Shown here one piece after another: positions 409 to 21,992 of a stretch of 64,000 nt of DNA. A model generated the notes under the pieces. The model had not been told where the DNA came from. It did no database searches and saw nothing but the letters and a program-made list of their open reading frames with translations. Position 1 is the stretch's first letter. Each line of letters begins with the position of its first letter. Where the stretch lies: assembly GCA_963737065.1 (NCBI GenBank), contig CAVTRC010000001.1, forward strand, positions 2,080,001 to 2,144,000. Direction: 5' to 3'. The translations under genes and the position numbers were made by a program. This stretch comes from Candidatus Eremiobacteria bacterium. Lineage in GTDB: Bacteria > Vulcanimicrobiota > Vulcanimicrobiia > Vulcanimicrobiales > Vulcanimicrobiaceae.

Positions 409-624
409 ATGTTTGACGTCGGTCGTTCACTGCAACATGGCCTTGATGACGCGCAAAATCGCTTGCGGGAGTCGCAAGCCGCGGTCGCGGAGGCGAACGC
501 GGGTCGTCCGAGACGTTCCACTGATGCCGCTATGGCGGAAACGGCGCGGGCGGCAATCTTCAACGAGGCGTTACTTGGTGCATTGCACGCACGGCTTCAG
601 GAACTCAAGGCCGTCACGCGCTGA
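409..624 (+). CDS. Miniature FlgB-like proximal rod protein (71 aa)
   Basis: N-terminal helix MFDVGRSLQHGLD..QNR and C-terminal DAAMAETARAAIFNEALLGALHARLQELKAV resemble the FlgB terminal helices. Lies upstream of flgC-fliE-fliF. TACCGT-N6-ATG favours start 409 over 388. Confidence 0.55.
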   Translation: MFDVGRSLQHGLDDAQNRLRESQAAVAEANAGRPRRSTDAAMAETARAAIFNEALLGALHARLQELKAVTR

Positions 625-645
625 GCCGTAGAACGCTCGTGTCTT

Positions 646-1088
646 ATGGCGGCAACTGCAGGCGAGTGCGCCGGCGCGAGCGTCACAATCGAAGACTCCG
701 ATCTCGGGCGTTGGACGGCCGCCCGTTGGGCGCCGCCGCGGACATCGCCGTTATTCAATCTGATCGAACGGATCTGGTATTTCGACGGAGCGCTAGCGAA
801 TGCAAAAGAGCGCGTCTTCCCGGACGGTCGTTCGGAACTGATCGTCATGCTGGACGAGCCGCATCGCGACGGCGATACCGCGCTTCCCGGCCGTTTCCGA
901 TCGTGTGCATTAATGGCCTTCGCACGCGACCTTCGGCCGTGATTGCACCGCGCGGACCTTGCCGCGATCTCGGTATCTCGCTTGAAGTCGCGGGAGCGTG
1001 TGCGCTATCCGGGGTCGCCGAGCCTCGCCGAACCGTAACCATTTTTACAAGACACCTGGCCCGGGTTCGGTTTACGATCGGTTCATGA
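646..1088 (+). pseudogene. Truncated AraC-family regulator (DUF6597-like N-terminal domain only)
   Basis: IERIWYFDG...ERVFPDGRSELIV motif. Frameshift near 890 continues as PIVCINGLRTRP..GISL. No HTH follows. Directly upstream of a VOC gene, the usual context. Confidence 0.6.
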
Positions 1089-1486
1089 ATATGACGCAAA
1101 GGCAACCGCTTCAATCGATCTATCCAACCGTTCGCTACGACGACGCTCGCGGCGCAATCGACTGGCTCACGTCTTGTCTCGGCTTCAGCGAACAGGTCGT
1201 CTATCCGGGTGAAGGCGTGACGATCGCCCACGCACAGTTGGCGCTGGGCGGAAATCTCATCATGTTGGGCAGCACGAAAGACGACCGCTTCGGCGTTTAC
1301 ATTGCGCTCGATACTCCGGAGGAGGTCGATGCGCATTACGCGCGCGCGAAGGCAGCCGGTGCGCAGATCGTTCGGGATCTCTGCGACACCGAGTACGGAT
1401 CGCGTGAATTCGGCGTACGCGATCCCGAGGGCCACCTCTGGAGTTTCGGAACGTACCGTCCGCAGGCAGGCGAAACAACGCCGTAA
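1085..1486 (+). CDS. VOC/glyoxalase family protein
   Basis: YPTVRYDDARGAIDWL, HAQLALG, YGSREFGVRDPEGHLWSFG. Confidence 0.9.
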   Translation: MNMTQRQPLQSIYPTVRYDDARGAIDWLTSCLGFSEQVVYPGEGVTIAHAQLALGGNLIMLGSTKDDRFGVYIALDTPEEVDAHYARAKAAGAQIVRDLCDTEYGSREFGVRDPEGHLWSFGTYRPQAGETTP

Positions 1487-1531: not shown

Positions 1532-1864
1532 ATGGATACGGATTTGCTGCAAACGGCCGCGAGCGGAATGGACGCGCAGCGCGCAGCGCTCGATGTCTAT
1601 GCGCGAAACGTTGCCGCCGCTGAAGCGGCCGGACGCGACGGGCACTTCGAGCGCCTCGTTCCTCAGTTCGAATTGCGCGATGACGACGACGGAACGACCG
1701 TCGAATTCACGGGTGCGCAAACGGATCGCGGAAAGAGCGTGGACATCGTGACCGAGATGATCGCGGTAATGAACGCGTCGCGCGCCTATGAAGCCGACGC
1801 ATCACTCTTCGACGTCGGCAAAACGCTGGCACAACGGACGATCGATATGGGGCGGCTGCAATGA
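1532..1864 (+). CDS. flgC: Shortened flagellar basal-body rod protein FlgC
   Basis: AASGMDAQR..LDV.ARNVA and VDIVTEMIAVMNASRAYEA. Lacks the central YDPxHPDA..GYV segment. Precedes fliE. Confidence 0.85.
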   Translation: MDTDLLQTAASGMDAQRAALDVYARNVAAAEAAGRDGHFERLVPQFELRDDDDGTTVEFTGAQTDRGKSVDIVTEMIAVMNASRAYEADASLFDVGKTLAQRTIDMGRLQ

Positions 1865-2127
1865 AGGTGGAATTGCTCCAGCCCGACGTTTCCCCGGCGC
1901 CCGCGGCAAGCGCAGCGAGCGGCTCCGCGTTTTCGCGAGCGTTGGACGGCGTCGGGGCGTTGCTCGACGGCGCCAACGCTGCAGAGGACGCTTTCGCGAA
2001 CCGGGTTGGGTCGTTGCAACGCGCGGTGTACGAACGCGCGCGCGCCGATGTCGCATTGTCTGTTGCAACGGCAGCCGCTCAGCGTAGCGCGCAGGCCCTC
2101 ACGTCGATCCTCAACATGCCGATTTGA
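1861..2127 (+). CDS. fliE: Flagellar hook-basal body protein FliE
   Basis: FSRAL...ERARADVALSVA...LTSILNMPI C-terminus. Lies between flgC and fliF with ATGA overlap. Confidence 0.8.
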   Translation: MKVELLQPDVSPAPAASAASGSAFSRALDGVGALLDGANAAEDAFANRVGSLQRAVYERARADVALSVATAAAQRSAQALTSILNMPI

Positions 2128-2129: not shown

Positions 2130-3599
2130 ATGTCGCTCGATTCATTTCTGGCTCGTGTCGCGTCGCTGCCCCAGCGGGTGAAGGCCGCCGCGATCGCGGT
2201 TGGCGCGTGTGCAATCGTCATCGGGATCGTCGTCGGCATTGTAGCGAACGCTCCGCGAACGCCGCTCTTCGCGCAGCCGCTGCATCCCGACCAGCTCGCG
2301 GAGGTCGAGGATCGTTTGGCACAGTGGAACGTCGCGTTCACGCCCAGCGGTGAAAATGTCGTCGTCGATGCCGGCCGCCGGAACGACATACTCTTGCGCT
2401 TGTCGCTTGCCGGTGTGCCGCACGCGCACGTTGCAACGACCGGCGAAGCGCTCGCGAACGTCGGTGTTCTGACCCCGCAAGCGGTCGTTGAGGCGCAAAC
2501 GCGCAGCGGCCTTGCCGGCGAAATCGAACTTGCGTTACGCAGCATCAACGGCGTGGACGAGGCGCGCGTCATCATTGCACCGGGTAAACTCGCGCAATTT
2601 GCTGACCAAGGTTCAGCCGATGCCTCGGCGAGCGTGCGCCTTCAACTGCATCCTGGCGTTCGTCTCTCGCGCGCGTCGATCGCCGGAATTCGCTCGTTTG
2701 TCGCAGCCAGCGTTACGGGCCTCGATCCGTCTCATGTCACGATTCTCGACGATCGCGGCGTCGCGCTGAGCGCGGACGCCGGTACTATCGATGACGGAAG
2801 CGTGCTCCAGACATCGCTACAAACGGCGCTCGATGACGCGCTCGGGGCCGGTGTCGCAATTGTCCGTGTCCACGCTGAATATGCCTCGGCGGAAAACGAA
2901 CAACGTGACGTGCGGCGTACTCCGCTCGGCAACACGCCGATTCAGCGCGACTCGGCGTCCGAATCGTTCGACGGTCAAGGCCGGCGGTACGAGAAGAACG
3001 ACGAGCACGACGATCGCGGAAGCGACGTGCATGAAACCGTCTCGCGCCTGCCGCGCGGTTCACTCGCGCGGATCACCACCGCTGTCTTCGTCGACGCGCA
3101 AAACAGCGTTCCCGTTGAAACGGTGAGCGCACTTTCCGCGGCGACCGTCGGGTACGATCCGCGGCGCGGCGATACGCTCACCGTTGAAGCGGTGAACTTC
3201 CATCACGCGCGCTCGCAGCCCCACGATATCTGGTTTCTGCTCTACGGCGCGCTCGTACCGTTGCTTCCGACGCTCGCGATCGTACTGGGTGTTCTCGTCG
3301 CGGGCCGGCACGCAGCGCCGCACGTTGCATCGATGACCAAGCGATATTTCGAACGTACCTCGCTTGCGCGCATCTCCTCGCGCGCGGCAGGCGTTGAACC
3401 GGCGCAACTCCGCGGCGCGCTTGTCAACGAACCGCCGCATGCTGCCGCCGCGATCATCAGTGCGTTGCCCGCTGCGACGGCGGCGGCCGTGCTCGAACTC
3501 TATCCGCCGCACGAGCGAGAAGCGATCGTGCGACGCATGCAGCGCGCGCATTCGCCGCTCGTTCCGGATGCATCCGAGATCCTCGGGCGCCATGCTTGA
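2130..3599 (+). CDS. fliF: FliF MS-ring protein with C-terminal FliG middle-domain-like extension
   Basis: TM helix, then ring-building motifs LAGEIELALRSINGVDEARVII, ASASV, FVAASVTGL.PSHVTILDDRG, VGYDPRRGDTLTV, a second TM, then EPPHAAAAIISALP..AAAVLELYP..EREAIVRRM. An alternative TTG start lies at 2124. Confidence 0.85.
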   Translation: MSLDSFLARVASLPQRVKAAAIAVGACAIVIGIVVGIVANAPRTPLFAQPLHPDQLAEVEDRLAQWNVAFTPSGENVVVDAGRRNDILLRLSLAGVPHAHVATTGEALANVGVLTPQAVVEAQTRSGLAGEIELALRSINGVDEARVIIAPGKLAQFADQGSADASASVRLQLHPGVRLSRASIAGIRSFVAASVTGLDPSHVTILDDRGVALSADAGTIDDGSVLQTSLQTALDDALGAGVAIVRVHAEYASAENEQRDVRRTPLGNTPIQRDSASESFDGQGRRYEKNDEHDDRGSDVHETVSRLPRGSLARITTAVFVDAQNSVPVETVSALSAATVGYDPRRGDTLTVEAVNFHHARSQPHDIWFLLYGALVPLLPTLAIVLGVLVAGRHAAPHVASMTKRYFERTSLARISSRAAGVEPAQLRGALVNEPPHAAAAIISALPAATAAAVLELYPPHEREAIVRRMQRAHSPLVPDASEILGRHA

Positions 3600-4086
3600 T
3601 CGATTTCTATCCATGCGTGAGTGGCTTGCGCGCGACGGCGAATCGCCGGCTGCCTCGGCCGACGTCGAAACGTACGAAGAACCGGCGGTTGAATCGGAAG
3701 CGTCGCCGGCGCACGCCGCAGACGACGAGATCGACGTGGCGATTGCCGAGGCCCGGCGTTTTCGTGCGTCGCTTGCCGATGCGCTCGCGATGCGAGTCGA
3801 CGAACTGATGCGCGATATCGCAAGCGAAGTGCTCGCACGCGAACTCGAGCTCGCGCCTTGCGATGTAGCGCGCATCGTTGAGCGCGCGGTGCAACGATAC
3901 GGCACCGAACCCGTATGCATTCGCGCCAATCCAACCGACGCAAACGTACTCCGGCGCAGCGATACGATCGTGATCGCGGACGATAGCTTGCGCGGCGGTG
4001 ACGTAGTTCTCGAAGTGCGATACGGCAGCATCGATGCCACGCTCGGCGTCCGGCTCGAACGCGTGCTCGGGGCGCGTACGCAATGA
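3592..4086 (+). CDS. fliH: FliH/SctL-like ATPase stator/regulator
   Basis: IRANPTD, IADDSLRGGDVVLEVRYGSIDATL are the FliH C-terminal domain pattern. Lies between fliF and fliI. Confidence 0.8.
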   Translation: MLDRFLSMREWLARDGESPAASADVETYEEPAVESEASPAHAADDEIDVAIAEARRFRASLADALAMRVDELMRDIASEVLARELELAPCDVARIVERAVQRYGTEPVCIRANPTDANVLRRSDTIVIADDSLRGGDVVLEVRYGSIDATLGVRLERVLGARTQ

Positions 4087-5330
4087 TCGCGCGGGGAACG
4101 GTCCGCAACGTGCGGCGCGGCTGCCTCGACGTTGCGATCGCGCCGCTCGCTGCCGGAACGGCGGTACGCATTGCGTTACGCGACGGTTGGAAGCGCGGCA
4201 CGGTAACGTCGAGCGAAAACGGCTTGGTAAGGGTCGCGCTCATCGGAAGCACGGACGGCGTCGTGCCGGGCGCACGCGCGGAAGAGGATCGCACGGGTCA
4301 GACGCTCGTCCTGGGAACGGCGGCGCTCGGGCGCGCGATCGACGCGTTCGGAAGACCGGTTGACGTTGGTGCGTCGCTGTGCGGCGTGCGCGTTCGCATT
4401 CCGGCAGCGCGCGTGCCACCACCGGATCGCATCGCGGTCGATGCGCCGCTTTGGACGGGCGTTCGCGTGATCGACGCGCTGCTGACGATCGGCCGCGGAG
4501 CGCGCATCGGACTCTTCGGTTCACCGGGCGCAGGCAAGAGTACGTTGCTCGAAACGATCGTTGAAGGCGTCCGTTGCGACGCGGTGGTCGTTGCGCTCGT
4601 CGGCGAACGCGGACGCGAAGCAGAACGATGGATCGCGCGGCGCAGCGCGCGCACAACGGTTGTCTGCGCGACGAGCGATTGCCCCGCGCGCGAACGCGTC
4701 GCTGCGGCGCACACCGCGCTCGCACAGGCGCGCGCGCTCGCGCAACGGGGGTTGCACGTACTCGTGATTCTCGATAGCCTCGCTCGCGTGGCGTACGCGT
4801 TGCGCGAAGACCGCGCCGACGAGCCGGCCGGGCGTGCGGGCTATCCGCCGAGCGTCTTTGCAGATCTTGCGCAACTCGTCGAGTGCGCAGGTGCCTTCAC
4901 GCGCGGTTCCGTTTCGCTACTCGCGACCGTCTTGAACGACGGCGAGGAGCGTGACCCGGTGAGTGAAGCGGCGCGCTCGCTGCTCGACGGGCACATCGAG
5001 CTCTCGTCGAAACTCGCGCAAGCGGGGCGGTTTCCAGCCGTCGACGTGCCGGCGAGCGCGAGCCGGACGATGGCCGCCGTTACGACGCCCGAACATCAAC
5101 GCGCTGCAACGAGGGTTCGGGCGGCATTGGCAGCGTTGCGCGACAGTGAAGATCTGCGCTCGCTCGGGATTGACGTGCGTGAGCCGCTCGCCGTCGCCGC
5201 GGTCGCCCAGCAACGCAAATTGGAGGCGCTGCTGCGCCAGGGACGGTCGCCCTGCCCTCCGCGACAGACCCTAACCCTCCTCTTCGAAATCGCCGATACC
5301 TTGGGAGAGCCCGATGAATATCACGTCTGA
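4083..5330 (+). CDS. fliI: FliI/SctN type III export ATPase
   Basis: Walker A GSPGAGKST, VGERGRE, ATSD, Walker B VLVILDS, GYPPSVF, LDGHIELS, FPAVDV..SASR. Confidence 0.93.
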   Translation: MIARGTVRNVRRGCLDVAIAPLAAGTAVRIALRDGWKRGTVTSSENGLVRVALIGSTDGVVPGARAEEDRTGQTLVLGTAALGRAIDAFGRPVDVGASLCGVRVRIPAARVPPPDRIAVDAPLWTGVRVIDALLTIGRGARIGLFGSPGAGKSTLLETIVEGVRCDAVVVALVGERGREAERWIARRSARTTVVCATSDCPARERVAAAHTALAQARALAQRGLHVLVILDSLARVAYALREDRADEPAGRAGYPPSVFADLAQLVECAGAFTRGSVSLLATVLNDGEERDPVSEAARSLLDGHIELSSKLAQAGRFPAVDVPASASRTMAAVTTPEHQRAATRVRAALAALRDSEDLRSLGIDVREPLAVAAVAQQRKLEALLRQGRSPCPPRQTLTLLFEIADTLGEPDEYHV

Positions 5331-5940
5331 TCTTGCCGCGGTCGAGCAGCGCATCACGCAAATCACCGGATCGACCGTCGAACTGCCCGGCTTCTCGCAC
5401 GCGCAGGATGAATCCGCATCCTTTAGCGACATGGTGCGTGCGCAGCTTTCCGCGCAAAACGGGCAGCAAGGCGATGGCAATGATATCGCCGGCACCGCGC
5501 CCGGCGCCCCGCTTGGGATGAGCCCACCGGCAATCGTTCCTCCCGCGCAAATCGACCGGCTCGTGCACTCGAACGCATCCCAGTGGAACGTGGATCCCGC
5601 GCTTGTAAAGGCAATCATTGCAAACGAGTCCGGATTTAACGTGAATGCGACATCGAATGTCGGTGCGCAAGGGCTCATGCAGCTGATGCCCGGCACGGCA
5701 GCCGGTCTCGGTGTCACAAATGCGTACGATCCTGCGCAGAACGTGTGGGGAGGCACTCGGTACATCAAGGGACTGCTCGACCGATTTAACGGCGACGTGC
5801 GAAAAGCGGTCGCAGCCTACAATGCGGGACCGGGTGCAGTAGAGAAATACGGTGGCGTACCTCCGTATGCCGAAACGCAAAACTACGTCGAAAACGTTCT
5901 CGCCAGTTACGAAAAGTACCGCAGCCCGAACACTCCGTAG
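5314..5940 (+). CDS. Lytic transglycosylase (SLT domain)
   Basis: AIIANESGFN (catalytic Glu), GAQGLMQLMP, AYNAGPG, ETQNYV. No obvious Sec signal. Confidence 0.93.
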   Translation: MNITSDLAAVEQRITQITGSTVELPGFSHAQDESASFSDMVRAQLSAQNGQQGDGNDIAGTAPGAPLGMSPPAIVPPAQIDRLVHSNASQWNVDPALVKAIIANESGFNVNATSNVGAQGLMQLMPGTAAGLGVTNAYDPAQNVWGGTRYIKGLLDRFNGDVRKAVAAYNAGPGAVEKYGGVPPYAETQNYVENVLASYEKYRSPNTP

Positions 5941-5956
5941 TGTCTTGCTTGCGGCG

Positions 5957-7513
5957 ATGGGTTGCGCGCTGGTCGCGCAAACCGCACCGTCGCATCCTTC
6001 CGTCGAAACGATTCTCAAGAACCACGCCGCCGCGCTTTCCGCGATGCGTTTGCGCGTACCGCAGACGCATGAAACGCAAGGCAGCATCGAAGGTCTCGGG
6101 TTGCAAGGAACCTTCCACGAATGGCAGGCGGGAAACAAACAACGTCGAGACGAGCGTCTCGGCTTTCGCGTGCAGCGCGAGCTGCGGGTCGGCGACAATC
6201 TCTGGATCGAGAACACCAGCGGCGAGATTCGCGAACTGCACGGCTTGCTCGCGCGCCGGCAATTGACGGATGATTTCATCGACACCGGCGTCTTCGCGAA
6301 GCATCCGGAGAGTGCGCGCTATATCGAGCGCGCAACGCTTCCGGACGGGCGGGTCGTTTACCGCTTGTCCATTGCGCCCCCGCAGGGCGAGCGGTTCGTC
6401 ATCGGGATTGATGCGAAGACGTGGCTCATCGACCAGAAGTCGTACATTGAAAACGATGCGCCTCAGGTGTCGACGTATTCCGACTACCACGTCGTCGACG
6501 GCCTGTTGATTCCGTACACCGAGGTTGATTCGACCGGCGATACAAAATTCGACGTGACGTCACACGTCACGAACGTAATGGTCAATCAGCCCATCGCCGA
6601 TTCGATCTTTGCGCCGCTTGCGCCTGAAGCGGTCGGAGCCGATACACCGGTGCGCGTGCCGCTTGAGATTCATAACGGTCTGCCGATGGTCAAGGTCACG
6701 ATCTCCGGACACACGTACCGGTTCCTGATCGATTCGGGCTCGCAAGGCAACGTGTTGGATCCGCACGTCTCGAAAGAACTCGGCTTGCATCCGGAGGGAA
6801 CGCTCGAGATTCGGGGAGCCGAACGGACGCCGAGCCTCGGGGTCGTTGAAACACCGCCGATGGAAGTGGGCGGCATGCAATTGCCGTCGCGGATTGCGAC
6901 GGTCCTCGACCTGAGCAAAATTCTACGCGGGCCATATCCGCTCGACGGCGTGCTAGGCTATCCGTTCTTCGCGGCGGCGGAAATCCGCTTCGATCCGGAC
7001 ACCAATGAATTGATCGTTGCCAAGCCCGGATTGCTGCCCGTGCTCGGCGAGAAGCTCCAGGTCGATACGGATCGCGAGCTCGTCGAGGTTGAGGCCACGA
7101 TCGACGGAACCGCGAAGACGCGGCTGCTCGTCGATACGGGAAACTCGAACGAATTATTGCTTTTCCAAAGTTTCATCAACGCACATCAAGGCCTCATTAT
7201 GTTCGCGGGAAACCCTTCGGTCGCAAACCGGGGCGCAGGCGGTTCCGCGCCGGCTGTGACGGCGATGGTCGACGAACTGCAAATCGGCAGCCAGCGTCTC
7301 TTCAATCGCTACACGGACGTTATTCTTGCAAGCGCTGGTGCGTTCGCCGACCGCAACGACGGCGGTAACGTCGGATATGGCGTGCTGCACAACTTCGTTG
7401 CGACGTTCGACCTTGCAGACCGTTCGATCTACTTACAAAAAGCGAGAAATTTCGATGATGGCCGCTTTCGTCAACGGACCGAGAGCGGCCAAATCTTGCC
7501 GTGGCGTTCATAA
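5957..7513 (+). CDS. Secreted aspartyl protease with two retropepsin-like domains
   Basis: FLIDSGSQ and LLVDTGNS motifs, each followed by a DGVLG or GGNVG motif. Hydrophobic N-terminus. Exact start uncertain (5852-5957). Confidence 0.8.
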   Translation: MGCALVAQTAPSHPSVETILKNHAAALSAMRLRVPQTHETQGSIEGLGLQGTFHEWQAGNKQRRDERLGFRVQRELRVGDNLWIENTSGEIRELHGLLARRQLTDDFIDTGVFAKHPESARYIERATLPDGRVVYRLSIAPPQGERFVIGIDAKTWLIDQKSYIENDAPQVSTYSDYHVVDGLLIPYTEVDSTGDTKFDVTSHVTNVMVNQPIADSIFAPLAPEAVGADTPVRVPLEIHNGLPMVKVTISGHTYRFLIDSGSQGNVLDPHVSKELGLHPEGTLEIRGAERTPSLGVVETPPMEVGGMQLPSRIATVLDLSKILRGPYPLDGVLGYPFFAAAEIRFDPDTNELIVAKPGLLPVLGEKLQVDTDRELVEVEATIDGTAKTRLLVDTGNSNELLLFQSFINAHQGLIMFAGNPSVANRGAGGSAPAVTAMVDELQIGSQRLFNRYTDVILASAGAFADRNDGGNVGYGVLHNFVATFDLADRSIYLQKARNFDDGRFRQRTESGQILPWRS

Positions 7514-9937: not shown

Positions 9938-9941
9938 TTGC

Positions 9942-14931: not shown

Positions 14932-14995
14932 GTCCGAGTCCGCTAGAAAACGAGCACAGACGAGTGATACGACAGAGGGGGCGCGGTACTCTTTG

Positions 14996-16225
14996 TTAGA
15001 GTGACGCGGCCCCTAGCGCGATGTTCTCAGCGAAGAAGACATCCGTGCGCGGGCACGCGTTCTGTCCCTGGACGCAGCCTACGATGCCGAGCGGATTTCC
15101 GCGGGTGGTCACCCGGAGAATCGTCAGTTGAAGCGTCGCCGGCGTAACGTAGCCGACCCGCTTGCCGTCTTTCTCGGTGAACCACATGCGACCAATACTA
15201 TCCGGCGTAATGCTTACAGGTGTTTGCCCGTTTCCATTGTTCGGCAACGCAATGAGCGACGGACTATTTCCGCCGGTCGGGACCTCACCGATCGAATTGA
15301 GTCCATCGTCGGTGAACCAAATTGCGCTCGAGCCGGCCGCGATTGCGCTAATGTGCGATTTATTCGGGAGCGCGAAAGAATGAACGATCTGGCCGGTGGA
15401 TGGGCTCACGGCGTAGAGAATCGACGGATTGTTCGCGGTGCCGTTTTTGCTTCCGTTGAGCGAGGGATCCGTCGCGACCCAAAGATTTCCGTCGGGTCCG
15501 ACCGCGGACGCGCCCAGCGGATGCGTGAACACCGGTGAGACGCACCCGACGCCGATGCCCAACAAGAAACCTTGCCACCCGGCGGGCGTAAAATGATCGC
15601 CGACGACGAACACGCTCGTGCCGCCGGCCGAAGCGAGTGAAACCCATTTATCGCCGTAGTTTCCGCTACGGAGCAGGCTCCATGTTTCCGTCGGAATGTT
15701 GTATTGCTCAAGCAGCGGCTGCGATGACGGCGTCGGCACCGGTCCGGCCGCGAGCGGCATCTCCAAGGCCGAGGCCGTGGTTCCATTCGTCGTCGTTCCG
15801 AGCGCCGTAACGGTCGATCCGGCGGCGATCAGCACGCCCGAGGGGCCGCTGTTTTTCGGAACCGAGGTCCACGTTTGACGGGTACGCGACTGAGCGGCTG
15901 GGCTCGGCGATGGGAGCAAATCCAGGTTCGAGTCGAAAATGTCGACGCCCGTTGCCGTCGTCGCATAGATCTTCTGATCGGAACCGACCGCGATGCCGCC
16001 GAGCAGTTCGTCTTTTGTGGTCTTCTCTCGAATGGTATTGCAACCGCACGGACTCGATGACGGCGTGGCCGTCGCCTCGGCACCGGGTGCCGGATTGCCG
16101 CTCCCGGATCCGCCGTTGTTTGAGTTCACGGGCGCGGGCGGTGCCGGTGAACCGCCGCCGCATGCAACTAACGAACAAGATACACCCGCAATGAAAAGAA
16201 AAAGGACCAGAGCACGTCGGGACAT
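14996..16225 (-). CDS. Lipoprotein with Vgb-like beta-propeller repeats
   Basis: GGAGG RBS before ATG 16225. Lipobox LVAC. Repeats GPDGNLWV, AIWFTD, GRMWFTE. Confidence 0.75.
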   Translation of the reverse strand: MSRRALVLFLFIAGVSCSLVACGGGSPAPPAPVNSNNGGSGSGNPAPGAEATATPSSSPCGCNTIREKTTKDELLGGIAVGSDQKIYATTATGVDIFDSNLDLLPSPSPAAQSRTRQTWTSVPKNSGPSGVLIAAGSTVTALGTTTNGTTASALEMPLAAGPVPTPSSQPLLEQYNIPTETWSLLRSGNYGDKWVSLASAGGTSVFVVGDHFTPAGWQGFLLGIGVGCVSPVFTHPLGASAVGPDGNLWVATDPSLNGSKNGTANNPSILYAVSPSTGQIVHSFALPNKSHISAIAAGSSAIWFTDDGLNSIGEVPTGGNSPSLIALPNNGNGQTPVSITPDSIGRMWFTEKDGKRVGYVTPATLQLTILRVTTRGNPLGIVGCVQGQNACPRTDVFFAENIALGAASL

Positions 16226-16334
16226 GGGACGAGCCTCCGTCAAATAGACTGCCATGCTAACCGTAGCCCGCAGTGTACGCGTGCGTATCGTAACGAACGT
16301 CCCGATAGGTATAGGGCCTAAGGGGAACCGCTTG

Positions 16335-17888
16335 CTATGTGTCCGGCATCTCTATCGGGCGTTCGCGATGCGCGAGCAGCCAATCGGCGTTCTCGGATAA
16401 CGCTTCACGTGCAAGCGAACGGAATAGTGCGCGCGCGGCCTCCGGCTCCTGGTCTTCCCGCTGCAACATCTCCCGCAGCTCTTTCGCGGCCGAGCGGTAG
16501 AGGTCCGACATGCGCGCGTATTCGCGCGCGTGGTACGCCCATGCCGACCGATCGGCATACCCATGAATCAAGGCAGACAACGCCGCGAAAACCGATATAA
16601 AAAATATGATGAATTCGCGCGCGTGATCCACACGCAACGGCACCAGCTCGTTCGCGACCAGCGCGAGCGTTAAAATGCTCACCGCGAGAATCAATACGCC
16701 GCTCGCGCGCTGTGTGAGCGCGACGCGAGTTTCGTCACGCCTTTTCGCGCGCGCAAAAAAGCGCTGCTGATCTTCAACCCACGCCTCACGCGCATCGCGT
16801 GCGCGCTCGACCCATTGCTGCTCCTTCAGGTGACGTTCGGCATGCCACCCGTCATAGCGCGACGACGAGCGCAATGCTTTACGCACCCACTCGAGCTCCA
16901 CTTCATGCTTGCGTTCGTACAGCGCGCCGAGGTCGCTGCCGAGATCGAGTGCATTCCAAAATCGCTGGATTCGCAGCGCTTCGCTCAACGCCCGGTAGTC
17001 CTGACTTTTTGATTCATAGCGTCGAGCGCGCGCAGACGCCACGACGAAGAACGCGGCGGCGAACGAAATGAGGTTCGCGATGAGAAAGATAATGGGCGGA
17101 GCGCCCGAGCTCAGCGAGACGTCTAATTCGTATCCGAGGAGCGCTAACACCGCGGCCCCGATGAACGCAAAGGTGCAATCCAACGCGCGGTTCTGTTCTG
17201 CATGGAACCGCATCGCGAGTTCATCGGCAACTGCGAAAAGCGTTGGACGCGGCTGCACCGGAAAGTCGGCCTCGGCATCACGGTTGAATTCGTCGACACG
17301 CGACCACGTTGCCGGTTGCGGCATATGATGGGTTCGCGATATGCGCTGCTCGACGTTCGTCGAGCCGTTGCGTGAGACGATGATCCAATCAATCGGTTCG
17401 GTATTTGCGATGCGCGCGTCGACCACGTCGGCCGTCCCGCCCGCGCCGCGAGCGGGCAGACCGTCCCAGAGCGCGATCAGTAAATCGCTCGTACTCGCGA
17501 TAAAAGCGCCGAGTTCTGCATAGCGCTCGTCGTCTCCGATCGGCCCCGACGCGGTCGGTACGACGAAACTCGTCTTTGCTTGCGCAAGAAGCGCATCGAA
17601 CGATTCCAACGACCCCGGCGTCGTGAAGTCTTTTCGGTATTCATCAACACTCACCGGCAGCGGAACGATAAGTTCGAGCTCGAGCGCGAGCGCTGCCTCC
17701 GCGACGATCCGGTCGGCGCCCTCCGCGAGCGGTGAAAGCACAACGATCGGCGTGTGCGGATAATCGCGACCCAGTTGGCGTAGCCGCTCTGTCACTAAAT
17801 CTCGCGCCGCATCGACGTGCGCTTCCGCGACGTCCCGATGGCCGGTGACGCCGACAAGCAAGGGGATTGCGCCGTCTGAACTGGCCAT
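16335..17888 (-). CDS. SLOG (YspA-like) domain fused to two SLATT-like 2TM modules
   Basis: VGVTGHRD, LSPLAEGADRIVA, DLLIALWDG..GGTADVV. Two TM pairs are followed by DYRALSEALR and EALSENADW. Confidence 0.72.
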   Translation of the reverse strand: MASSDGAIPLLVGVTGHRDVAEAHVDAARDLVTERLRQLGRDYPHTPIVVLSPLAEGADRIVAEAALALELELIVPLPVSVDEYRKDFTTPGSLESFDALLAQAKTSFVVPTASGPIGDDERYAELGAFIASTSDLLIALWDGLPARGAGGTADVVDARIANTEPIDWIIVSRNGSTNVEQRISRTHHMPQPATWSRVDEFNRDAEADFPVQPRPTLFAVADELAMRFHAEQNRALDCTFAFIGAAVLALLGYELDVSLSSGAPPIIFLIANLISFAAAFFVVASARARRYESKSQDYRALSEALRIQRFWNALDLGSDLGALYERKHEVELEWVRKALRSSSRYDGWHAERHLKEQQWVERARDAREAWVEDQQRFFARAKRRDETRVALTQRASGVLILAVSILTLALVANELVPLRVDHAREFIIFFISVFAALSALIHGYADRSAWAYHAREYARMSDLYRSAAKELREMLQREDQEPEAARALFRSLAREALSENADWLLAHRERPIEMPDT

Positions 17889-17960: not shown

Positions 17961-18230
17961 ATGGATGGGTTTGCGGGACTGCTACGCGAGGCAATGGTTT
18001 TGGCGGCGGTGCTCTGCGTGCCGGTGCTCGGTGTTGCGGCTCTCGTTGGAACCGCGATCGCGGTCGTGCAAGCCGCAACGCAAATACAGGAGCAAACGTT
18101 GACACTGCTTCCCAAGATGCTTGCCGTCGGCTTCACGATCGCGCTCTTCGGCGGCTTTGCGATGCACGCGTGCGAAGCGCTCTTCCACCACGCGCTCGAT
18201 GCGATTCCCGCACTCGTGTACGGCCCGTGA
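17961..18230 (+). CDS. fliQ: Export gate protein FliQ/SctS
   Basis: LVGTAIAVVQAATQIQEQTLTLLPK. Confidence 0.95.
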   Translation: MDGFAGLLREAMVLAAVLCVPVLGVAALVGTAIAVVQAATQIQEQTLTLLPKMLAVGFTIALFGGFAMHACEALFHHALDAIPALVYGP

Positions 18231-18937
18231 CTGCCGCGTCGTTACTCGTTTTCGCGCGCTGCGCCGGCTTCGTCTTTCGCGCGCCGGGCTTTTCGCATCC
18301 GAGCGTTCCGCGCGCGCTTCGTGCCGGTCTCGCACTGGCGCTCGCCGCAGCGATCGCTCCCGGCGTTCACGTTCGAACGTTGGACGGCGCCGCCCTGATC
18401 GTCGGTGTCGCGACCGAATTTGCGCTCGGGACGGCGATCGGCATAGCGGCCTCGCTGTTGTATGACGGTGCGTATGCCGGCGGACGGATGTTGGACGACT
18501 ACGTCGGGGTGAAAGCGATTGCGCCGAACGTCGATCTTGTCGCGCCGAGCGGGTTCGGGCGGCTTTGGTCACTGGCATTTACCGGCGGATACTTTCTCTT
18601 CGGCGCATATGGCCCGGCCATATCGACGTTCGCCGCGAGTTTCGACCACATCGCACTCGGTGCGCCGTTCGACCCGCATGCATGGGAACCGTTTGCGATC
18701 TCGGTTGCAACGACGATCGTGACCGTAGCGGTTGCGGTTGCTGCACCGGCAGTTGCGCTCGCGTTCGTTACGCAGATTGCGCTTGCGGCGCTCGCGCGGA
18801 CGGTCCCGCGGTTCGCGACCTTCTCGCTTTCCTTTCCGGTCGTCTTCGGCGTCGTGCTGATCGTGACGGCGCTCTCCATTCCGATCGCCGTATCGCAGGC
18901 AGCGCATCCGTTCGTTCTCATTCCGGGCGTACGATGA
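18227..18937 (+). CDS. fliR: Export gate protein FliR/SctT
   Basis: GTGA overlap with fliQ. LVFARCAGFVFRAPGF, EFALG, LARTVPRF..FSLSFP. Confidence 0.88.
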   Translation: MTAASLLVFARCAGFVFRAPGFSHPSVPRALRAGLALALAAAIAPGVHVRTLDGAALIVGVATEFALGTAIGIAASLLYDGAYAGGRMLDDYVGVKAIAPNVDLVAPSGFGRLWSLAFTGGYFLFGAYGPAISTFAASFDHIALGAPFDPHAWEPFAISVATTIVTVAVAVAAPAVALAFVTQIALAALARTVPRFATFSLSFPVVFGVVLIVTALSIPIAVSQAAHPFVLIPGVR

Positions 18938-19944
18938 GCGACGCATCAGAGAAGCAATTCGATGCCACACCGTCCCGCGTCGCAAAAGCACGCCGCGAGG
19001 GCAACGTTCCGCGCTCGCAAGAACTTGCGGCGAACATCGCATTCATTGCTGCGGCACTGTGCGTCGCAGCAGTCTCGCCTTTGTTCAACGCTGCGGCACA
19101 GCGCGCGCTCGCGCGGGCGGCGGGCGGTATGGATGCCGTGGCCGATACGCTCGCAATGCTGGCATGCGCAGTTGCGGTTGCAGCCGGCAGTGCAGCCGCA
19201 GCCGCCGTTGCCGGCGTCATTCAGACCGGGGGTGTTACAATCGTCGCGCCATCGTTCAACGTCTCTCGTCTCGCGCCGGGCGAGGGCATCAAACGCATGT
19301 TGTCCGGTGAAACGGTAACGCACGCGGTTCGCGCGCTGTTCGCATTTGCGGTCGCCGGAGCCGCGACCGTTGCGTCGATGTGGTCGCTCTTCGGAGTCGC
19401 GCGAGAAAGTTCACATATTGACGCGGTGGCCGCGACGGCATGGAACGGTGCAGAACACGTCGTGTTTGCAGCCGCGGCCGTCGGTATGGGCTTTGCAACG
19501 ATCGAATACGCCGTCGCGCGGCGTTCGTGGCTCTCGAAGCTCAAGATGAGCCTGCATGAGCTGAAACGGGAACTGAAAGAGAACGACGGTGATCCGGCGG
19601 CGCGAGCGCGCCGGAAGGCATTGCATCGCAGCCTCATTCGCGGCGCGATCGCGAAGGTCAAAGACGCCTCGTTCGTCGTCGTGAATCCGACGCACGTTGC
19701 GGTTGCGCTCGAATACCGTCCGCCTGCCGTACCGGTGCCGGTCGTTCTCGTGCGCGCTGCAGACGAGATGGCGTTGCGCGTTCGCGCGCTCGCGGCGCAA
19801 AGCGGCATTCCGATCATCGAAAACATCGCGCTCGCGCGTGCACTTTTCGCCCAGACGCAGCCCGGCGAAGCGATACCGCATGAGTGCTACGTCGCGGTCG
19901 CGGAAATCGTCGCGTCGCTCATCCGCAGCGGAGCGTTCGAATGA
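18934..19944 (+). CDS. flhB: Export switch protein FlhB/SctU
   Basis: EKQFDATPSR..KARREGNVPRS, LKMS..ELKRELKENDGDP, intact NPTH autocleavage motif, IENIALARALF. Confidence 0.95.
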   Translation: MSDASEKQFDATPSRVAKARREGNVPRSQELAANIAFIAAALCVAAVSPLFNAAAQRALARAAGGMDAVADTLAMLACAVAVAAGSAAAAAVAGVIQTGGVTIVAPSFNVSRLAPGEGIKRMLSGETVTHAVRALFAFAVAGAATVASMWSLFGVARESSHIDAVAATAWNGAEHVVFAAAAVGMGFATIEYAVARRSWLSKLKMSLHELKRELKENDGDPAARARRKALHRSLIRGAIAKVKDASFVVVNPTHVAVALEYRPPAVPVPVVLVRAADEMALRVRALAAQSGIPIIENIALARALFAQTQPGEAIPHECYVAVAEIVASLIRSGAFE

Positions 19945-21992
19945 CGAAACTCCCTGTTTATGCTTTTGCGGCGTGTTTGCTCGCAATCGTGGCGATTTTG
20001 ATCGTGCCGCTGGCGCCCTGGCTGCTCGACGTGCTGCTCGCCATCAATGTGTTCGGTTCCGCGCTTGTGCTGTTGCTCGCCGTGACGATTGATGACCCGC
20101 TCGAGTTCTCAGCCTTTGCGCCGGCATTGCTGGTCGCGACGCTCTTCCGCCTGTCGCTCGACGTGTCGGCGACGCGGCTCATCTTGACCGATGGAGCAAC
20201 ACCGGGCGCAGTCGGTGCAATTATCCCGGCTTTCGGCGCGTTCGTCGTTCACGGGAATCTCGTCGTCGGTTTGATCGTCTTCGCCATTCTCATCACGATT
20301 CAATTCATCGTGATCGCGAGCGGATCGCAGCGAGTTGCCGAAGTCGCCGCGCGCTTCACGCTCGACGCGATGCCCGGCAAACAGATGGCGATCGATGCGG
20401 ACGTGCACGCCGGCGTGCTCGATGCCGACGGCGCGCGGCGCAAACGCGCGCTCGTGCAGCGCGAAGCCGATTTCTACGGCGCGATGGACGGCGCCGGAAA
20501 ATTTGTGAAAGGCGATGCCGTCGCTGCACTGGTCATCGTCGGCTTGAACCTTTCGGGCGGCATCGTCGTCGGCATTGCGTATCACGGAATGCCGCCGCTC
20601 GACGCACTCAACACCTACGCGTTGCTCTCCATCGGCAATGCGCTCGTGACGACGCTGCCGGCGTTTCTGATTTCGACCGCGATGGGCATGATGGTCACGC
20701 GCGTCGCTTCGGACGGCGCGCTCGGTGCCGATCTCGCCGCGCAGCTTTTCGCGCGTCCCGACGTATTGCGCAGCGCGGGTGCGCTGCTGATCGTCCTCTC
20801 GTTCGTTCCCGCATTGCCGCGGCCGGTGTTTTTCATGCTCGGCGGATGCGCGTTCGTTGCAGCGCAGCTCGCGGCGCGCAAACAACGCGCGCGCGTCCGG
20901 CAGGCGACGGCGGAAAGCGAGCGCGCAAAGCGGCAGGCGCTCCGGCGACCGGAACTTGCGCTCGGACTCGTGGGCGTGGATGCGATGTCGATCGACATCG
21001 GCTCGGAGATCGCGCACCTCCTAGTGCCGCCGCTGGCGGACGCGCTATTGGATCGTATCGGCGAAGTCCGTCGCGCGCTTGCAACGGAGATCGGTATCGT
21101 GCTTCCGGGCGTGCGGCTGCGCGACGATCTCGCGCGCGACGCACAGACGTATGCGATCCGCGTTCGCGATCGGATTGCCGGAGAAGGGCGGTTGCAGCTT
21201 GAGCGCGTCCTTGCGGTCGCCGACGTCTCGGTGCTGTCGCGCTTCGGCCTCGATGTGCAGCCGGAACCCGTCTACGGGCTTCCGTCCGCGTGGATCGATT
21301 CGGCGCAACGTACCGCGCTCGCCGATGCGGGCGCTTTAGTGTTCGATCCCATTTCGATCGTCGGATCGCATGTCGCGGAAACCGTACGGCGGTATGCAAG
21401 CGAACTCGTCGGCCGCCAAGAGCTACAGACGATGCTCGAACATCTGCGCGCAACGATGCCGGCTCTCGTTAAAGAAATCGGCACGGACGCGTTCCCACTT
21501 GGCGTATTGCACCGTGCGTACGTGTATCTGTTGCGCGAGGGCGCCTGGCCGCGCGACCCCGTCGCGCTCTTGCAGGCGATGCTCGAGGCGCCGACGCGCG
21601 ACCCACGCGAACTTGCGGAGGCGGCTCGTCGCGCGATCGTTCCCGATCTGCTGCGCCGGCGCGGTGTGAGCAAACTCGAGCCGCTCTTGCTCGACCCCGA
21701 ATACGAGCGCGAACTGACGCGAGCTTGGGTTAGCGCTACGGTTGAAATCGCTCCCGATCCCGACCGCGCGCTCTCACTGCGAGACCAAGTAGCGTCGTAT
21801 TCGGCTCGAGTACCGCGCGAGCGAGCGGCCGTCGTCTGTATGCCGCCATTGCGGCCGGTGCTCGCGGACTTCCTTATGCGGAGCGGAGTCCGGACGGAAG
21901 TATTCGCGTATGGTGAACTGCCCCCGGAGTTGCAGTTAGTTCCGGCCGGAGTGGTGAACCATGAGCCGCGGCCCTTGGCGGCATTTGTTTGA
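19941..21992 (+). CDS. flhA: Export gate major subunit FlhA/SctV
   Basis: RVAEVAARFTLDAMPGKQMAIDAD, EADFYGAMDGAGKFVKGDA, and a full cytoplasmic domain. Confidence 0.96.
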   Translation: MTKLPVYAFAACLLAIVAILIVPLAPWLLDVLLAINVFGSALVLLLAVTIDDPLEFSAFAPALLVATLFRLSLDVSATRLILTDGATPGAVGAIIPAFGAFVVHGNLVVGLIVFAILITIQFIVIASGSQRVAEVAARFTLDAMPGKQMAIDADVHAGVLDADGARRKRALVQREADFYGAMDGAGKFVKGDAVAALVIVGLNLSGGIVVGIAYHGMPPLDALNTYALLSIGNALVTTLPAFLISTAMGMMVTRVASDGALGADLAAQLFARPDVLRSAGALLIVLSFVPALPRPVFFMLGGCAFVAAQLAARKQRARVRQATAESERAKRQALRRPELALGLVGVDAMSIDIGSEIAHLLVPPLADALLDRIGEVRRALATEIGIVLPGVRLRDDLARDAQTYAIRVRDRIAGEGRLQLERVLAVADVSVLSRFGLDVQPEPVYGLPSAWIDSAQRTALADAGALVFDPISIVGSHVAETVRRYASELVGRQELQTMLEHLRATMPALVKEIGTDAFPLGVLHRAYVYLLREGAWPRDPVALLQAMLEAPTRDPRELAEAARRAIVPDLLRRRGVSKLEPLLLDPEYERELTRAWVSATVEIAPDPDRALSLRDQVASYSARVPRERAAVVCMPPLRPVLADFLMRSGVRTEVFAYGELPPELQLVPAGVVNHEPRPLAAFV

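Follow-up and report, generated by a model that had tools for sequence, protein, structure and literature searches.

What does a flagellar-type gene cluster do when its export gate is complete and no motor, hook or filament genes are recognized beside it? Such genes are collinear at positions 388-21992 of a 64,000-nucleotide stretch (the window) from a soil bacterium of phylum Eremiobacterota. An initial annotation, made from the letters of this stretch, proposed a minimal flagellum-derived type III export machine, unable to rotate and independently repurposed. On balance we favor a related reading, in which the cluster would encode a flagellum-derived type III export machine with a basal body, its rotation lost, that selection has maintained throughout the class Eremiobacteria. 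Judged from its genes, the product is most likely a non-rotating export or rod-building machine. Its job is probably something other than swimming, and a secretion function we can only infer.

To assign genes, 35 ORFs were scanned with Pfam and 24 with NCBIfam, and hhalign was used for comparison with 22 E. coli proteins (Table 1); a further 41 ORFs at 26-64 kb were scanned for missing parts.

Table 1. Features of the cluster in window order, with lengths and principal matches.
Feature	Position	Strand	Length and matches
FlgB-like protein (tentative)	388-624	+	78 aa, small helical protein; no Pfam match
Break in cluster	646-1486		
FlgC-like proximal rod protein	1532-1864	+	110 aa; Pfam Flg_bb_rod, Flg_bbr_C
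FliE	1861-2127	+	88 aa; Pfam FliE E 4e-4, below cutoff
FliF MS-ring protein	2130-3599	+	489 aa; Pfam YscJ_FliF, YscJ_FliF_C, FliG_M
FliH	3592-4086	+	164 aa; Pfam FliH E 1e-9; hhalign to E. coli FliH E 2.5e-6
FliI/SctN ATPase	4083-5330	+	415 aa; Pfam ATP-synt_ab, T3SS_ATPase_C
SLT-family lytic transglycosylase	5314-5940	+	208 aa; Pfam SLT E 1e-29
Aspartic protease, two retropepsin-like domains	5867-7513 or 5957-7513 (start uncertain)	+	Pfam Asp_protease_2, two stretches
FliK/SctP-like protein	7543-8100	+	185 aa
FlgF/FlgG-like distal rod protein	8105-8827	+	240 aa; Pfam LlgE_F_G_D1 weak; TIGR03506 and FlgF below cutoff
FliM (middle and SpoA domains)	8827-9598	+	frameshifted in window
FliN	9595-9870	+	91 aa, SpoA domain only; Pfam FliMN_C E 3e-26; TIGR02480 102 bits, above cutoff
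FliP	9915-10598	+	Pfam FliP E 5e-73; TIGR01103 229 bits, above cutoff
metF (methylenetetrahydrofolate reductase)	10608-11504	+	Pfam MTHFR E 1e-91
Insertion, second break in cluster	11524-17888	-	6.4 kb
FliQ	17961-18230	+	Pfam Bac_export_3; TIGR01402 66 bits
FliR	18227-18937	+	Pfam Bac_export_1
FlhB	18934-19944	+	Pfam Bac_export_2 E 3e-73
FlhA	19941-21992	+	Pfam FHIPEP E 6e-189

The export gate, the ATPase with FliH, the MS ring and the FliM/FliN pair named in the initial annotation are all recovered by these scans. The NPTH autocleavage motif is visible in the FlhB translation, and FliI retains Walker A, Walker B and the GERGRE segment. Among the core genes, only FliP and FliN exceed NCBIfam equivalog cutoffs. 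FlhA scores 580 bits with TIGR01398 (FlhA) versus 473 with SctV, and FliI scores 308 bits with SctN versus 303 with FliI clade 1, all below cutoffs. The metF gene lies between fliP and fliQ in all 47 loci showing both and is a conserved passenger within the cluster. It was overlooked in the initial annotation, as were the lytic transglycosylase, aspartic protease and FliK/SctP-like genes.

FliF residues 426-474 match positions 1-49 of the 76 in Pfam FliG_M (E 3.4e-7), indicating that a remnant of the FliG middle domain, about 55 residues long, is fused to the FliF C-terminus. PF14841 is carried by 117 of the 120 FliF homologues listed, and the fused FliF is encoded in 225 species genomes. The C-terminal segment is nearly invariant among 23 sequences and is the most conserved part of FliF, though its hhalign match to E. 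coli FliG 90-161, EHPQ region included, is weak (E 0.16). The claim that a full fliG is missing thus needs qualification: no FliG_C is found, but part of FliG_M persists within FliF. FliM lacks the long N-terminus of its E. coli counterpart (about 80 residues missing), and FliMN_C is present in 28 of 29 family members. Its AF2 model (pLDDT 78.5) best matches Salmonella FliM in the C ring (Foldseek E 1.8e-13), with FliM middle domains at E 5e-8 to 2e-6, and this predicted fold confirms a genuine FliM.

Scans of the window ORFs return no match to FliG_C, FliJ, FliO, FliL, FlgD, FlgE, FlgK/L, flagellin, MotA/B, FlgH/I, sigma-28 or Che proteins, nor to the injectisome secretin, SctD, needle protein, SctJ, inner rod, tip or translocon; the gaps described initially, in flagellar and injectisome parts alike, hold for the ORFs scanned. 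We also searched the window and 80 related loci (1.45 Mb, of which 1.39 Mb are related loci) by tblastn with FliG, MotA/B, FlgD/E/H/I/K/L, flagellin, FliD/S/J/L/O, FliA and Che proteins. No match at E <= 0.01 is obtained for 44 of the 46 reference queries, in a search of low sensitivity (as positive controls, E. coli FliM matched 0 loci and FlgG 3). The other two, both FlgE, hit only the FlgF/G-like gene, and no hook gene was recognized in the related loci either. The upstream flanks of 10 loci contain 67 ORFs, all of them housekeeping genes.

An inability to rotate fits the anatomy of the loci, with FliG reduced to a remnant, no FliG_C or stator recognized in the window and related loci, and a short FliM N-terminus; missing genes could still lie elsewhere in the genome. 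The cluster might then belong to an ordinary rotating flagellum whose hook, filament, stator and full-length FliG are encoded at a distance. Flagellar genes are often scattered, and our searches cover a 64-kb portion of a contig of 2.5 Mb and, for every relative, a region of about 21 kb. We nevertheless regard an ordinary flagellum as very unlikely. The fused FliG_M remnant occupies the place expected for the FliG_N docking peptide, FliM is truncated, most core genes fall below equivalog cutoffs, and a very long stem branch (1.65 in the concatenated tree described below) leads to the clade. Furthermore, the sole cultured relative, Vulcanimicrobium alpinum, is described in the accessible part of its report (PMC9758169) as a diderm with no flagella by electron microscopy and no flagellin gene, which moves by type IV pili. 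Table S8 of the same report gives fliN as the sole flagellar entry, yet it also includes che genes, a point in favor of a flagellum.

The gene order of the cluster is identical in all 80 related loci (about 21 kb sampled around each), and the lineages that have the system include Baltobacterales-type and Eremiobacteraceae-labelled ones. Every gene tested has a dN/dS of 0.04-0.33 (window versus L002 and L001), and medians for 17 genes range from 0.06 to 0.32 (60 of 133 eligible locus pairs). The initial annotation had argued against simple decay and had proposed dN/dS and synteny across relatives as checks. Because the fused FliF occurs in 225 genomes, the loci are collinear and dN/dS is low, decay does not account for the cluster, and maintenance of the trimmed gene set by selection across class Eremiobacteria is well supported by these sequence comparisons.

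A functionless relic drifting neutrally would explain the frameshift in the window fliM, the foreign genes inserted at two places and the shortening of several proteins, but is highly improbable and for the family largely refuted. The fliM lesion is a 1-nt insertion near 9307 relative to all five aligned relatives; the segment downstream still has a dN/dS of about 0.2, and FliM is intact in 65/65 related loci, where one uninterrupted ORF of 236-327 aa encodes it. The window could carry a broken copy or an assembly error. An AcrB gene is likewise split in the window, as is one in locus L003, which suggests indel errors of long-read assemblies.

Where the initial annotation counted three shrunken axial proteins, we count four, and the FlgF/G-like protein is close in length to E. 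coli FlgF and FlgG (251 and 260 aa; FlgC and FliE have 134 and 104) and is not shrunken; "minimal" is likewise imprecise. By hhalign it matches FlgG (E 7e-7, 151 columns), FlgF (2.6e-5) and FlgE (5.5e-5). The FlgC-like protein scores 55 bits with TIGR01395 (FlgC), below cutoff, and aligns to E. coli FlgC over 106 columns (E 1e-9). FliE is borne out as the best hhalign match among the 22 E. coli proteins (E 0.003). We tentatively call the 78-aa protein FlgB-like. Its gene sits immediately upstream of flgC in 73/73 loci showing both flanking genes, with a dN/dS of 0.09-0.12. Its ESM Atlas lead is a FlgB family cluster (score 0.86), and hhalign matches it best, though weakly, to the N-terminus of E. 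coli FlgC (E 0.023). A FliJ-like role is possible instead.

The lytic transglycosylase scores best in NCBIfam with the BB0259 family of flagellar assembly transglycosylases (86 bits) and occupies the same position in 60 of 67 loci; by eye, no signal peptide is evident on its hydrophilic N-terminus. The aspartic protease carries DSG and DTG motifs, and its N-terminus, basic at first and then hydrophobic, is likely a Sec signal. It is limited to the window's clade (23/67 loci) and has a dN/dS of 0.07-0.13.

In the FliK/SctP-like alignment, the N-terminus and the C-terminal domain are conserved and flank a variable linker; AF2 models the C-terminal domain at pLDDT 79-91. There is no Pfam match, no PDB sequence match and no Foldseek match at E <= 0.001. 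The top two Foldseek PDB entries are nonetheless the C-terminal domain of FliK (2rrl, E 0.011) and the switch domain of PscP (5cuk, E 0.015), hhalign pairs the protein with E. coli FliK 269-318 (E 0.034), and the ESM Atlas leads are HpaP/SctP clusters (0.92-0.94). With these three weak, concordant lines and their marginal scores, the model suggests a probable T3S4 fold, and the cluster probably encodes a switch or ruler protein.

This protein bears on a structural role, in which the apparatus would span the envelope as an anchor, or carry some other surface structure as its platform, and export would serve self-assembly only. No cargo genes or chaperones are recognized in the cluster, and the rod set and lytic transglycosylase are kept, which speaks for such a role. 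An outer-membrane component is likewise not recognized, which counts, as does the lack of recognized cargo, against the favored export machine. The switch protein and FlhB NPTH, in contrast, would imply a second substrate class, and we consider the structural role rather unlikely, if worth some weight.

The phylogenetic position is less clear-cut. Two quick FlhA trees (70 rows) join Eremiobacterota to the SctV clade and set the pair apart from all 55 rows of flagellar FlhA (SH-aLRT 98 with LG+G4 and 95 with PMSF). FliI and FlhB score slightly higher on Sct than on flagellar models, the switch protein resembles HpaP/SctP, and the gene losses agree with the first step of the scenario in the accessible part of Abby and Rocha (PMC3459982). 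The system could be sister to the injectisome (NF-T3SS) or belong to its stem lineage, as a surviving form of the non-motile intermediate that those authors proposed. Eremiobacterota FlhA lies outside the SctV clade in the two FlhA trees and in the concatenated one, which favors independent repurposing. Against an injectisome stem, placement in an AU test with the T. roseum/Arthrobacter (Terrabacteria flagellar) clade has a log-likelihood 31.4 above the free quick tree (p-AU 0.885). The concatenated FliI+FliP+FlhB+FlhA tree sets Eremiobacterota among flagellar rows (SH-aLRT 80), and in it Listeria branches between Eremiobacterota and Sct. Both the Eremiobacterota and Sct clades are long-branched, so mutual attraction is likely. 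FliE, FlgC, FlgF/G and FliF are also kept, with no SctD, SctJ, SctF or SctI. We give the injectisome stem little probability; a very divergent flagellar offshoot, separate from injectisomes, is favored by these trees but not settled, and the same holds for independent repurposing.

For the favored export machine we can sketch a mechanism, every step of it drawn from homology. The FliF membrane ring would house the FliPQR-FlhB-FlhA gate, and the FliG remnant on its C-terminus would dock FliM. FliM and FliN would form a cytoplasmic ring whose sole function is to give the FliH-FliI ATPase a sorting platform; the ring would produce no torque because the FliG C-terminal domain and stator are missing, and no CheY switching because FliM lacks the long N-terminus. 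The gate would export FliE, FlgB-like, FlgC and FlgF/G subunits to build a rod, the transglycosylase, which has no evident signal peptide, would open the peptidoglycan, and the FliK/SctP-like protein with the FlhB NPTH site would switch export to later substrates. In the end, the machine might export into the periplasm or envelope, or form a structure that spans the envelope.

Like an injectisome, this system would combine the gate, an ATPase, a ring of SpoA-domain proteins, a probable T3S4 switch protein and the NPTH switch in a non-rotating, flagellum-derived device. Unlike one, it has FliF as its MS ring and flagellar rod proteins as axial parts, and neither a SctC secretin, SctD or SctJ nor a needle, inner rod, tip or translocon is recognized among its window ORFs. 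Buchnera, a reduced and non-motile endosymbiont, keeps filament-less basal bodies under selection, with fliG, hook and ring genes, and these have been proposed to act as exporters. A basal body that likewise lacks a filament appears to be kept under selection in Eremiobacterota, which live freely in soil and have genomes of 2.5-3.5 Mb.

FliF is also covalently joined to FliG in engineered or mutant Salmonella and Vibrio, where, according to the accessible text of PMC11481574 and others, FliG is full-length and rings can still form; those fusions come from laboratory strains or constructs, whereas in Eremiobacterota the fusion occurs naturally and keeps no more than a portion of the FliG middle domain. 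The Myxococcales "Myxo" NF-T3SS, proposed to translocate proteins or build a periplasmic structure (Abby and Rocha 2012, PMC3459982), resembles our locus in being secretin-less, needle-less, non-motile and conserved in free-living bacteria. As presented in the available portion of that paper, it lacks FlgBCDEK and FliEG and belongs to the Sct lineage, whereas Eremiobacterota keep FliE, FlgC, FlgF/G and FliF, with FlhA outside the SctV clade. Finally, non-flagellated Lysobacter enzymogenes OH11 moves by type IV pili and secretes non-flagellar proteins through its flagellar T3SS in a FliI-dependent manner (PMC7688988; PMC7277350). Eremiobacterota resemble it in keeping a flagellar export apparatus, and their cultured member V. 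alpinum in having no flagella and moving by type IV pili. Lysobacter retains most flagellar genes, chiefly without fliC (available part of PMC7688988); Eremiobacterota differ in lacking, at the loci searched, FliG_C, stator, hook, junction proteins, cap, FliJ, FliL and FliO, and in a reduced FliG fused to FliF, a state common to a class and not a genus. By analogy, FliI-dependent secretion in Lysobacter offers a precedent for an export machine of this kind in Eremiobacterota.

Scanning those ORFs of the window (G+C ~61%) that show coding-like codon-position G+C against Pfam and NCBIfam yields the gene order collected in the table below. Every component of the export apparatus (FliP, FliQ, FliR, FlhB, FlhA, FliH and FliI) has a Pfam match, and the translations retain NPTH in FlhB and the Walker A, Walker B and GERGRE segments in FliI. 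The MS-ring protein FliF and the rod proteins FliE, FlgC and FlgF/G are present as well, with FlgB tentative, and most adjoining cluster genes overlap by a few bases. NCBIfam equivalog cutoffs are reached by FliP and FliN only; the other flagellar proteins fall well below them, which indicates that the system is divergent. The 41 ORFs between 26 and 64 kb of the window are housekeeping and include no flagellar family.

Coordinates of the export cluster in the window and of a conserved upstream gene in Cybelea-type related loci
Feature	Coordinates	Strand	Basis or remark
FlgB-like 78-aa ORF	388-624		tentative
FlgC-like rod protein	1532-1864	+	Pfam/NCBIfam scan
FliE	1861-2127	+	Pfam/NCBIfam scan
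FliF	2130-3599	+	Pfam/NCBIfam scan
FliH	3592-4086	+	Pfam/NCBIfam scan
FliI/SctN ATPase	4083-5330	+	Pfam/NCBIfam scan
SLT lytic transglycosylase	5314-5940	+	Pfam/NCBIfam scan
Two-domain retropepsin-like aspartic protease	end 7513	+	Pfam/NCBIfam scan
FliK/SctP-like protein	7543-8100		conserved ORF
FlgE/F/G-D1-like protein (FlgF/G-like)	8105-8827 (start refined)	+	Pfam/NCBIfam scan
FliM	8824-9576	+	ORF without family match in the scan
FliN	9595-9870	+	Pfam/NCBIfam scan
FliP	9915-10598	+	Pfam/NCBIfam scan
metF	10608-11504	+	Pfam/NCBIfam scan
FliQ, FliR, FlhB, FlhA	17961-21992		followed by SecD, SecF
Cybelea-type conserved gene, L017	7805-9067	-	
Cybelea-type conserved gene, L031	7765-8928	-	
Cybelea-type conserved gene, L052	7691-8836	-	
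Cybelea-type conserved gene, L062	7812-8990	-	

The initial annotation spoke of three shrunken axial proteins, a description that does not fit the FlgF/G-like protein, which has a normal size of 240 aa and finds FlgG as its best E. coli match (hhalign, E 7e-7). The FlgB-like ORF lies directly 5' of flgC in 73 of 73 loci and gives weak rod-like signals in hhalign and ESM Atlas comparisons. Between these two genes, at 646-1486, the window carries a glyoxalase-family gene and a fragment similar to the N-terminal part of AraC proteins (DUF6597, weak), an insertion that among the 73 loci is common only to the window and the related locus L002. A window-specific insertion of five minus-strand genes separates metF from fliQ (11524-17888); it includes an ArsR/Csa3-like HTH protein, a TIR-NB-ARC-TPR protein of 903 aa (PADLOC ThsB-like TIR, E 2e-8), a beta-propeller protein resembling Vgb lyase and a membrane protein that weakly matches SLATT, and looks like a defence islet. 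Both interruptions of the cluster are local. Elsewhere in the window, a HIRAN-domain DEAD/DEAH helicase with strong PADLOC DpdF-like matches (E 6e-69) is located 3' of secDF (24683-26743), a candidate for either defence or repair. The region 42700-49500 has low coding density and holds a CAAX protease fragment and a fragment of a type I restriction-modification methyltransferase (43689-44309, which aligns with positions 66-251 of an 810-position model); the stretch is possibly what remains of a mobile or defence region after degradation.

FliF residues 426-474 match positions 1-49 of the 76-position Pfam FliG_M domain above the gathering score (E 3.4e-7). In an alignment of 23 homologues this segment at the C-terminus hardly varies, against an average column identity of 73% in the remainder of FliF. 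Comparison of the segment with E. coli FliG residues 90-161, which include the EHPQ region, is weak (hhalign, E 0.16). No Pfam match to FliG_C or FliG_N was obtained among the ORFs scanned, and the E. coli and Arthrobacter FliG queries have no tblastn match in the 1.45 Mb of window and 80 related loci. The proposed absence of a full fliG thus stands for a full-length FliG with a torque domain, which was not found in the window or the loci, and needs amending for the FliG_M part, which is fused to FliF.

The ORF immediately upstream of fliN encodes FliM. In all 65 related loci compared, one uninterrupted ORF of 236-327 aa encodes it and ends at fliN, and 28 of 29 members contain a C-terminal FliMN_C domain. 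The AlphaFold2 model (pLDDT 78.5) is ordered from residue 18 on, and Foldseek aligns it with Salmonella FliM in C-ring structures (E 1.8e-13) and with the FliM middle domains of FliG-FliM co-crystals (E 5e-8 to 2e-6). At ~250 aa in the 65 loci versus 334 aa in E. coli, the protein is ~80 residues shorter, all of them N-terminal. FliM of the E. coli type binds CheY through a motif in its N-terminal segment; judged from length and model, this segment is missing here. Relative to five of five aligned relatives, the window's fliM contains a 1-nt insertion near 9307, and the SpoA part 3' of it is highly conserved (dN/dS ~0.2). An AcrB-type RND pump gene in the window (38304-41676, minus strand) is similarly split into two overlapping ORFs, as is a similar pump in related locus L003 (4962-8310); related loci L001 and L013 have intact versions of ~1,090 aa, which suggests that the split AcrB genes are indel errors of long-read MAG assemblies. 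The fliM insertion is therefore as likely to be an assembly indel as a recent real lesion.

The search for further flagellar parts used 46 reference proteins from E. coli, Arthrobacter, Thermomicrobium and Listeria (FliG, FliJ/K/L/O, FlgA/D/E/H/I/J/K/L/M/N, MotA/B, FliD/S, FlbD, FliA, FliW, FlhF, flagellin and CheA/W/Y) as tblastn queries against the window and the 80 loci. No match at E <= 0.01 was obtained for 44 of the 46, and both FlgE queries matched the FlgF/G-like gene alone. The sensitivity of this search is low (among the six queries used as positive controls, E. coli FliM matched 0 loci and FlgG matched 3), and its blanks are weak evidence of absence. For MotA and MotB, there is no Pfam match in the window, and eight queries from four organisms were blank in the window and all 80 loci. 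ORF scans and tblastn likewise reveal no gene of its own for any hook, junction, filament or cap protein (FlgD/E/K/L, FliC, FliD) in the window and 80 loci; overall, stator, hook and filament genes were found neither in the cluster nor in 1.39 Mb of related loci. Nor do the ORFs scanned yield a Pfam or NCBIfam match to the injectisome components SctC, SctD/SctJ, SctF or SctI, and FliF scores 69 bits with the FliF model versus 35 bits with that of SctJ. The initial annotation had listed hook, filament, stator and injectisome-specific parts as absent, and the window scans agree for all of them, as do the blank tblastn results in 80 loci for the flagellar parts. According to its description (PMC9758169), Vulcanimicrobium alpinum WC8-2, the only cultured member of the phylum, is a diderm without flagella by EM and without a flagellin gene that uses type IV pili for movement. 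In Table S8 of the same paper, fliN is the sole flagellar gene listed; the strain is a putative carrier of the cluster.

One conserved ORF of the cluster probably encodes a T3S4 switch protein, the FliK/SctP-like protein. An alignment of 28 sequences, from which the L025 row was dropped because of a stop codon, shows the layout of a ruler-type protein: the N-terminus (35 residues) and the C-terminal domain (~80) are conserved, and the linker between them (~70) is variable. The structural model follows the same division, with pLDDT below 50 at residues 45-97 and 79-91 in the C-terminal domain. Foldseek ranks two PDB structures first, 2rrl (FliK C-terminal domain, E 0.011) and 5cuk (PscP switch domain, E 0.015), and no match reaches E 0.001. 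Among 22 E. coli flagellar proteins FliK is the best hhalign match (E about 0.035, residues 271-315), and ESM Atlas look-alikes outside the protein's own clusters belong to HpaP/SctP families (scores 0.92-0.94). None of the 28 members matches the FliK/HpaP families PF02120 and PF09483 at E <= 1, and a PDB profile search returned one irrelevant match (E 2.4).

At E <= 0.001, 1045 of the 8000 candidates scored are relatives of the fused FliF. Among the 120 matches listed, which are 57-100% identical and ~489 aa long, 117 contain FliG_M, and the named sources are Candidatus Eremiobacterota/Vulcanimicrobiota MAGs. When one genome per GTDB species was scanned, 225 genomes proved to encode a relative; the best 80 loci were kept, and all 80 are collinear with the window. 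The FliK-like gene is found between fliI and flgF/G in 66 of 66 loci, and metF between fliP and fliQ in all 47 that show both. With dN/dS of ~0.08, metF is a housekeeping gene stably set in a flagellar-type operon, and several loci of the window's clade have extra DNA around it. The lytic transglycosylase occupies its place in 60 of 67 loci and is not universal to the system; seven loci (L053, L056, L061, L063, L070, L073 and L075) lack it between fliI and the FliK-like gene. The aspartic protease occurs in 23 of 67 loci, all of the window's clade. On the 5' side, a reading of 67 of 96 candidate ORFs from 10 loci identifies housekeeping neighbors (GreA, LysS, TruA, L13, S9, DUF3810, RND pump, TMEM175), which points to vertical inheritance. 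Just 5' of the FlgB-like gene, Cybelea-type loci share a conserved minus-strand gene of ~380-420 aa whose family matches are almost nil, with a single weak WXXGXW repeat.

The sequences are under purifying selection and not in neutral decay. When the window is compared with related loci L002 and L001, each of the 15 gene segments from FlgB-like to fliP has a Nei-Gojobori dN/dS within 0.04-0.33, values that are rough since dS is near 1 (and undefined in one comparison). Of 133 pairs whose FliF proteins are 78-97% identical, 60 were sampled; they give median dN/dS values of 0.06-0.32 for 17 genes (fliQ, fliR and flhB among them), and the largest individual value, 0.67, was obtained for the FliK-like gene. 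These ratios and the collinearity of the 80 loci bear out the earlier proposal that the cluster is not the product of simple decay. In Lysobacter and Buchnera a flagellar type III secretion system is kept under selection in filament-less organisms, and dN/dS, synteny and the unflagellated cultured relative show the same pattern here.

The phylogenetic position was assessed principally with FlhA. Only two 50%-identity clusters are close to the window's protein, at 61% and 46%; the others among 8701 matches are at most 43% identical. The 46% cluster, P0123, bears the labels Eremiobacteraceae and Eremiobacter antarcticus, which means that the system is present in both main orders of the class. 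The best named plasmid-borne relative, the FlhA of Thermomicrobium roseum (40.6%), comes from a locus with a complete motor set. The nearest outgroup FlhA, P0124, is 39% identical to that of the window and 66% identical to a protein labelled Vulcanimicrobiota, which hints at descent within the phylum. P0124, P0367 and P0373 are FlhA proteins of a lower-G+C lineage with one member labelled Vulcanimicrobiota, and this lineage might retain a fuller flagellum.

An FlhA tree of 70 rows was calculated (5 Eremiobacterota, 53 unnamed representatives, 6 named flagellar FlhA and 6 named SctV, the injectisome counterpart). The quick search separates Eremiobacterota plus SctV from all 55 flagellar rows, with SH-aLRT of 98 under LG+G4 and 95 under PMSF. 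Such a grouping would allow the cluster to represent, in a living lineage, the long-postulated initial step on the way from flagellum to injectisome, a non-motile, rod-bearing derivative of the flagellum that is sister or stem to all NF-T3SS; we regard this as a long shot. A tree constrained to unite Eremiobacterota with the T. roseum/Arthrobacter clade lies 31.4 log-likelihood units above the free tree (p-AU 0.885), so the quick search had overlooked a better topology, which leaves the Sct grouping unsupported; the AU comparison favors the flagellar placement and does not reject the grouping with SctV. A concatenation of FliI, FliP, FlhB and FlhA (15 taxa, 1569 columns, PMSF quick search; FliQ and FliR were left out, since tblastn did not detect them in distant references) recovers the Sct rows as a clade (SH-aLRT 100). 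It places Eremiobacterota, on a very long stem of 1.65, with E. coli, Arthrobacter and T. roseum (SH-aLRT 80), and Listeria between them and Sct. The grouping with SctV was not adopted, because the constrained tree is likelier and the concatenated tree disagrees. Furthermore, the SctV clade (SH-aLRT 100) leaves out the Eremiobacterota rows in every tree. On our reading of these trees, the system would have branched from flagellar systems independently of the injectisome and diverged strongly.

Taking the parts list together with its conservation and with what is missing from the regions covered, we infer a possible mode of operation. FliF would form a membrane ring around the FliPQR-FlhB-FlhA gate, and the fused FliG_M remnant would replace the FliF-FliG_N-FliG_M chain and dock the FliM middle domain, through the contact present in the FliG-FliM co-crystals to which the FliM model aligns. 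A FliM and FliN ring would then recruit FliH and FliI. With neither a FliG C-terminal domain nor a stator, there would be no rotor-stator interface, and the truncated FliM N-terminus would leave no CheY input. The gate may export FliE, the FlgB-like protein, FlgC and FlgF/G, which would build a rod. Since no signal peptide is evident in the transglycosylase, this enzyme probably leaves by the type III route, as FlgJ does, and would open the wall. The FliK/SctP-like protein, together with the FlhB NPTH motif, would switch export to a later substrate class. More speculatively, exported proteins could be periplasmic substrates of the Sec-targeted protease found in the window's clade.

If this picture is true, the cluster is a natural experiment that parts the export and assembly role of the C-ring from torque generation, and a second, probably independent, exaptation of the flagellum to set beside the injectisome. 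It would also be an unstudied envelope machine in a phylum abundant in oligotrophic soils, for which the cultured V. alpinum opens the way to cryo-ET and genetics.

The re-use of a flagellum without motility is of a known kind. The injectisome is one such case, and Buchnera is another. The same is described for the Myxococcales loci of Abby and Rocha (PMC3459982) and for Lysobacter (PMC7688988). What we have not found described is the combination of traits in this variant: a natural FliF-FliG_M fusion, the loss of FliG_C, the retention of rod, switch protein and transglycosylase, and an embedded metF. The searchable literature, with subscription-only papers outside its scope, contained no description of the Eremiobacterota cluster and no natural truncated FliF-FliG fusion. 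In the genomes compared, a class of soil bacteria, free-living and diderm, conserves the variant throughout. Known conversions of flagella are those in injectisomes and in a small number of bacteria that are reduced or lack flagella; this free-living class as a whole keeps one defined, strongly conserved reduction.
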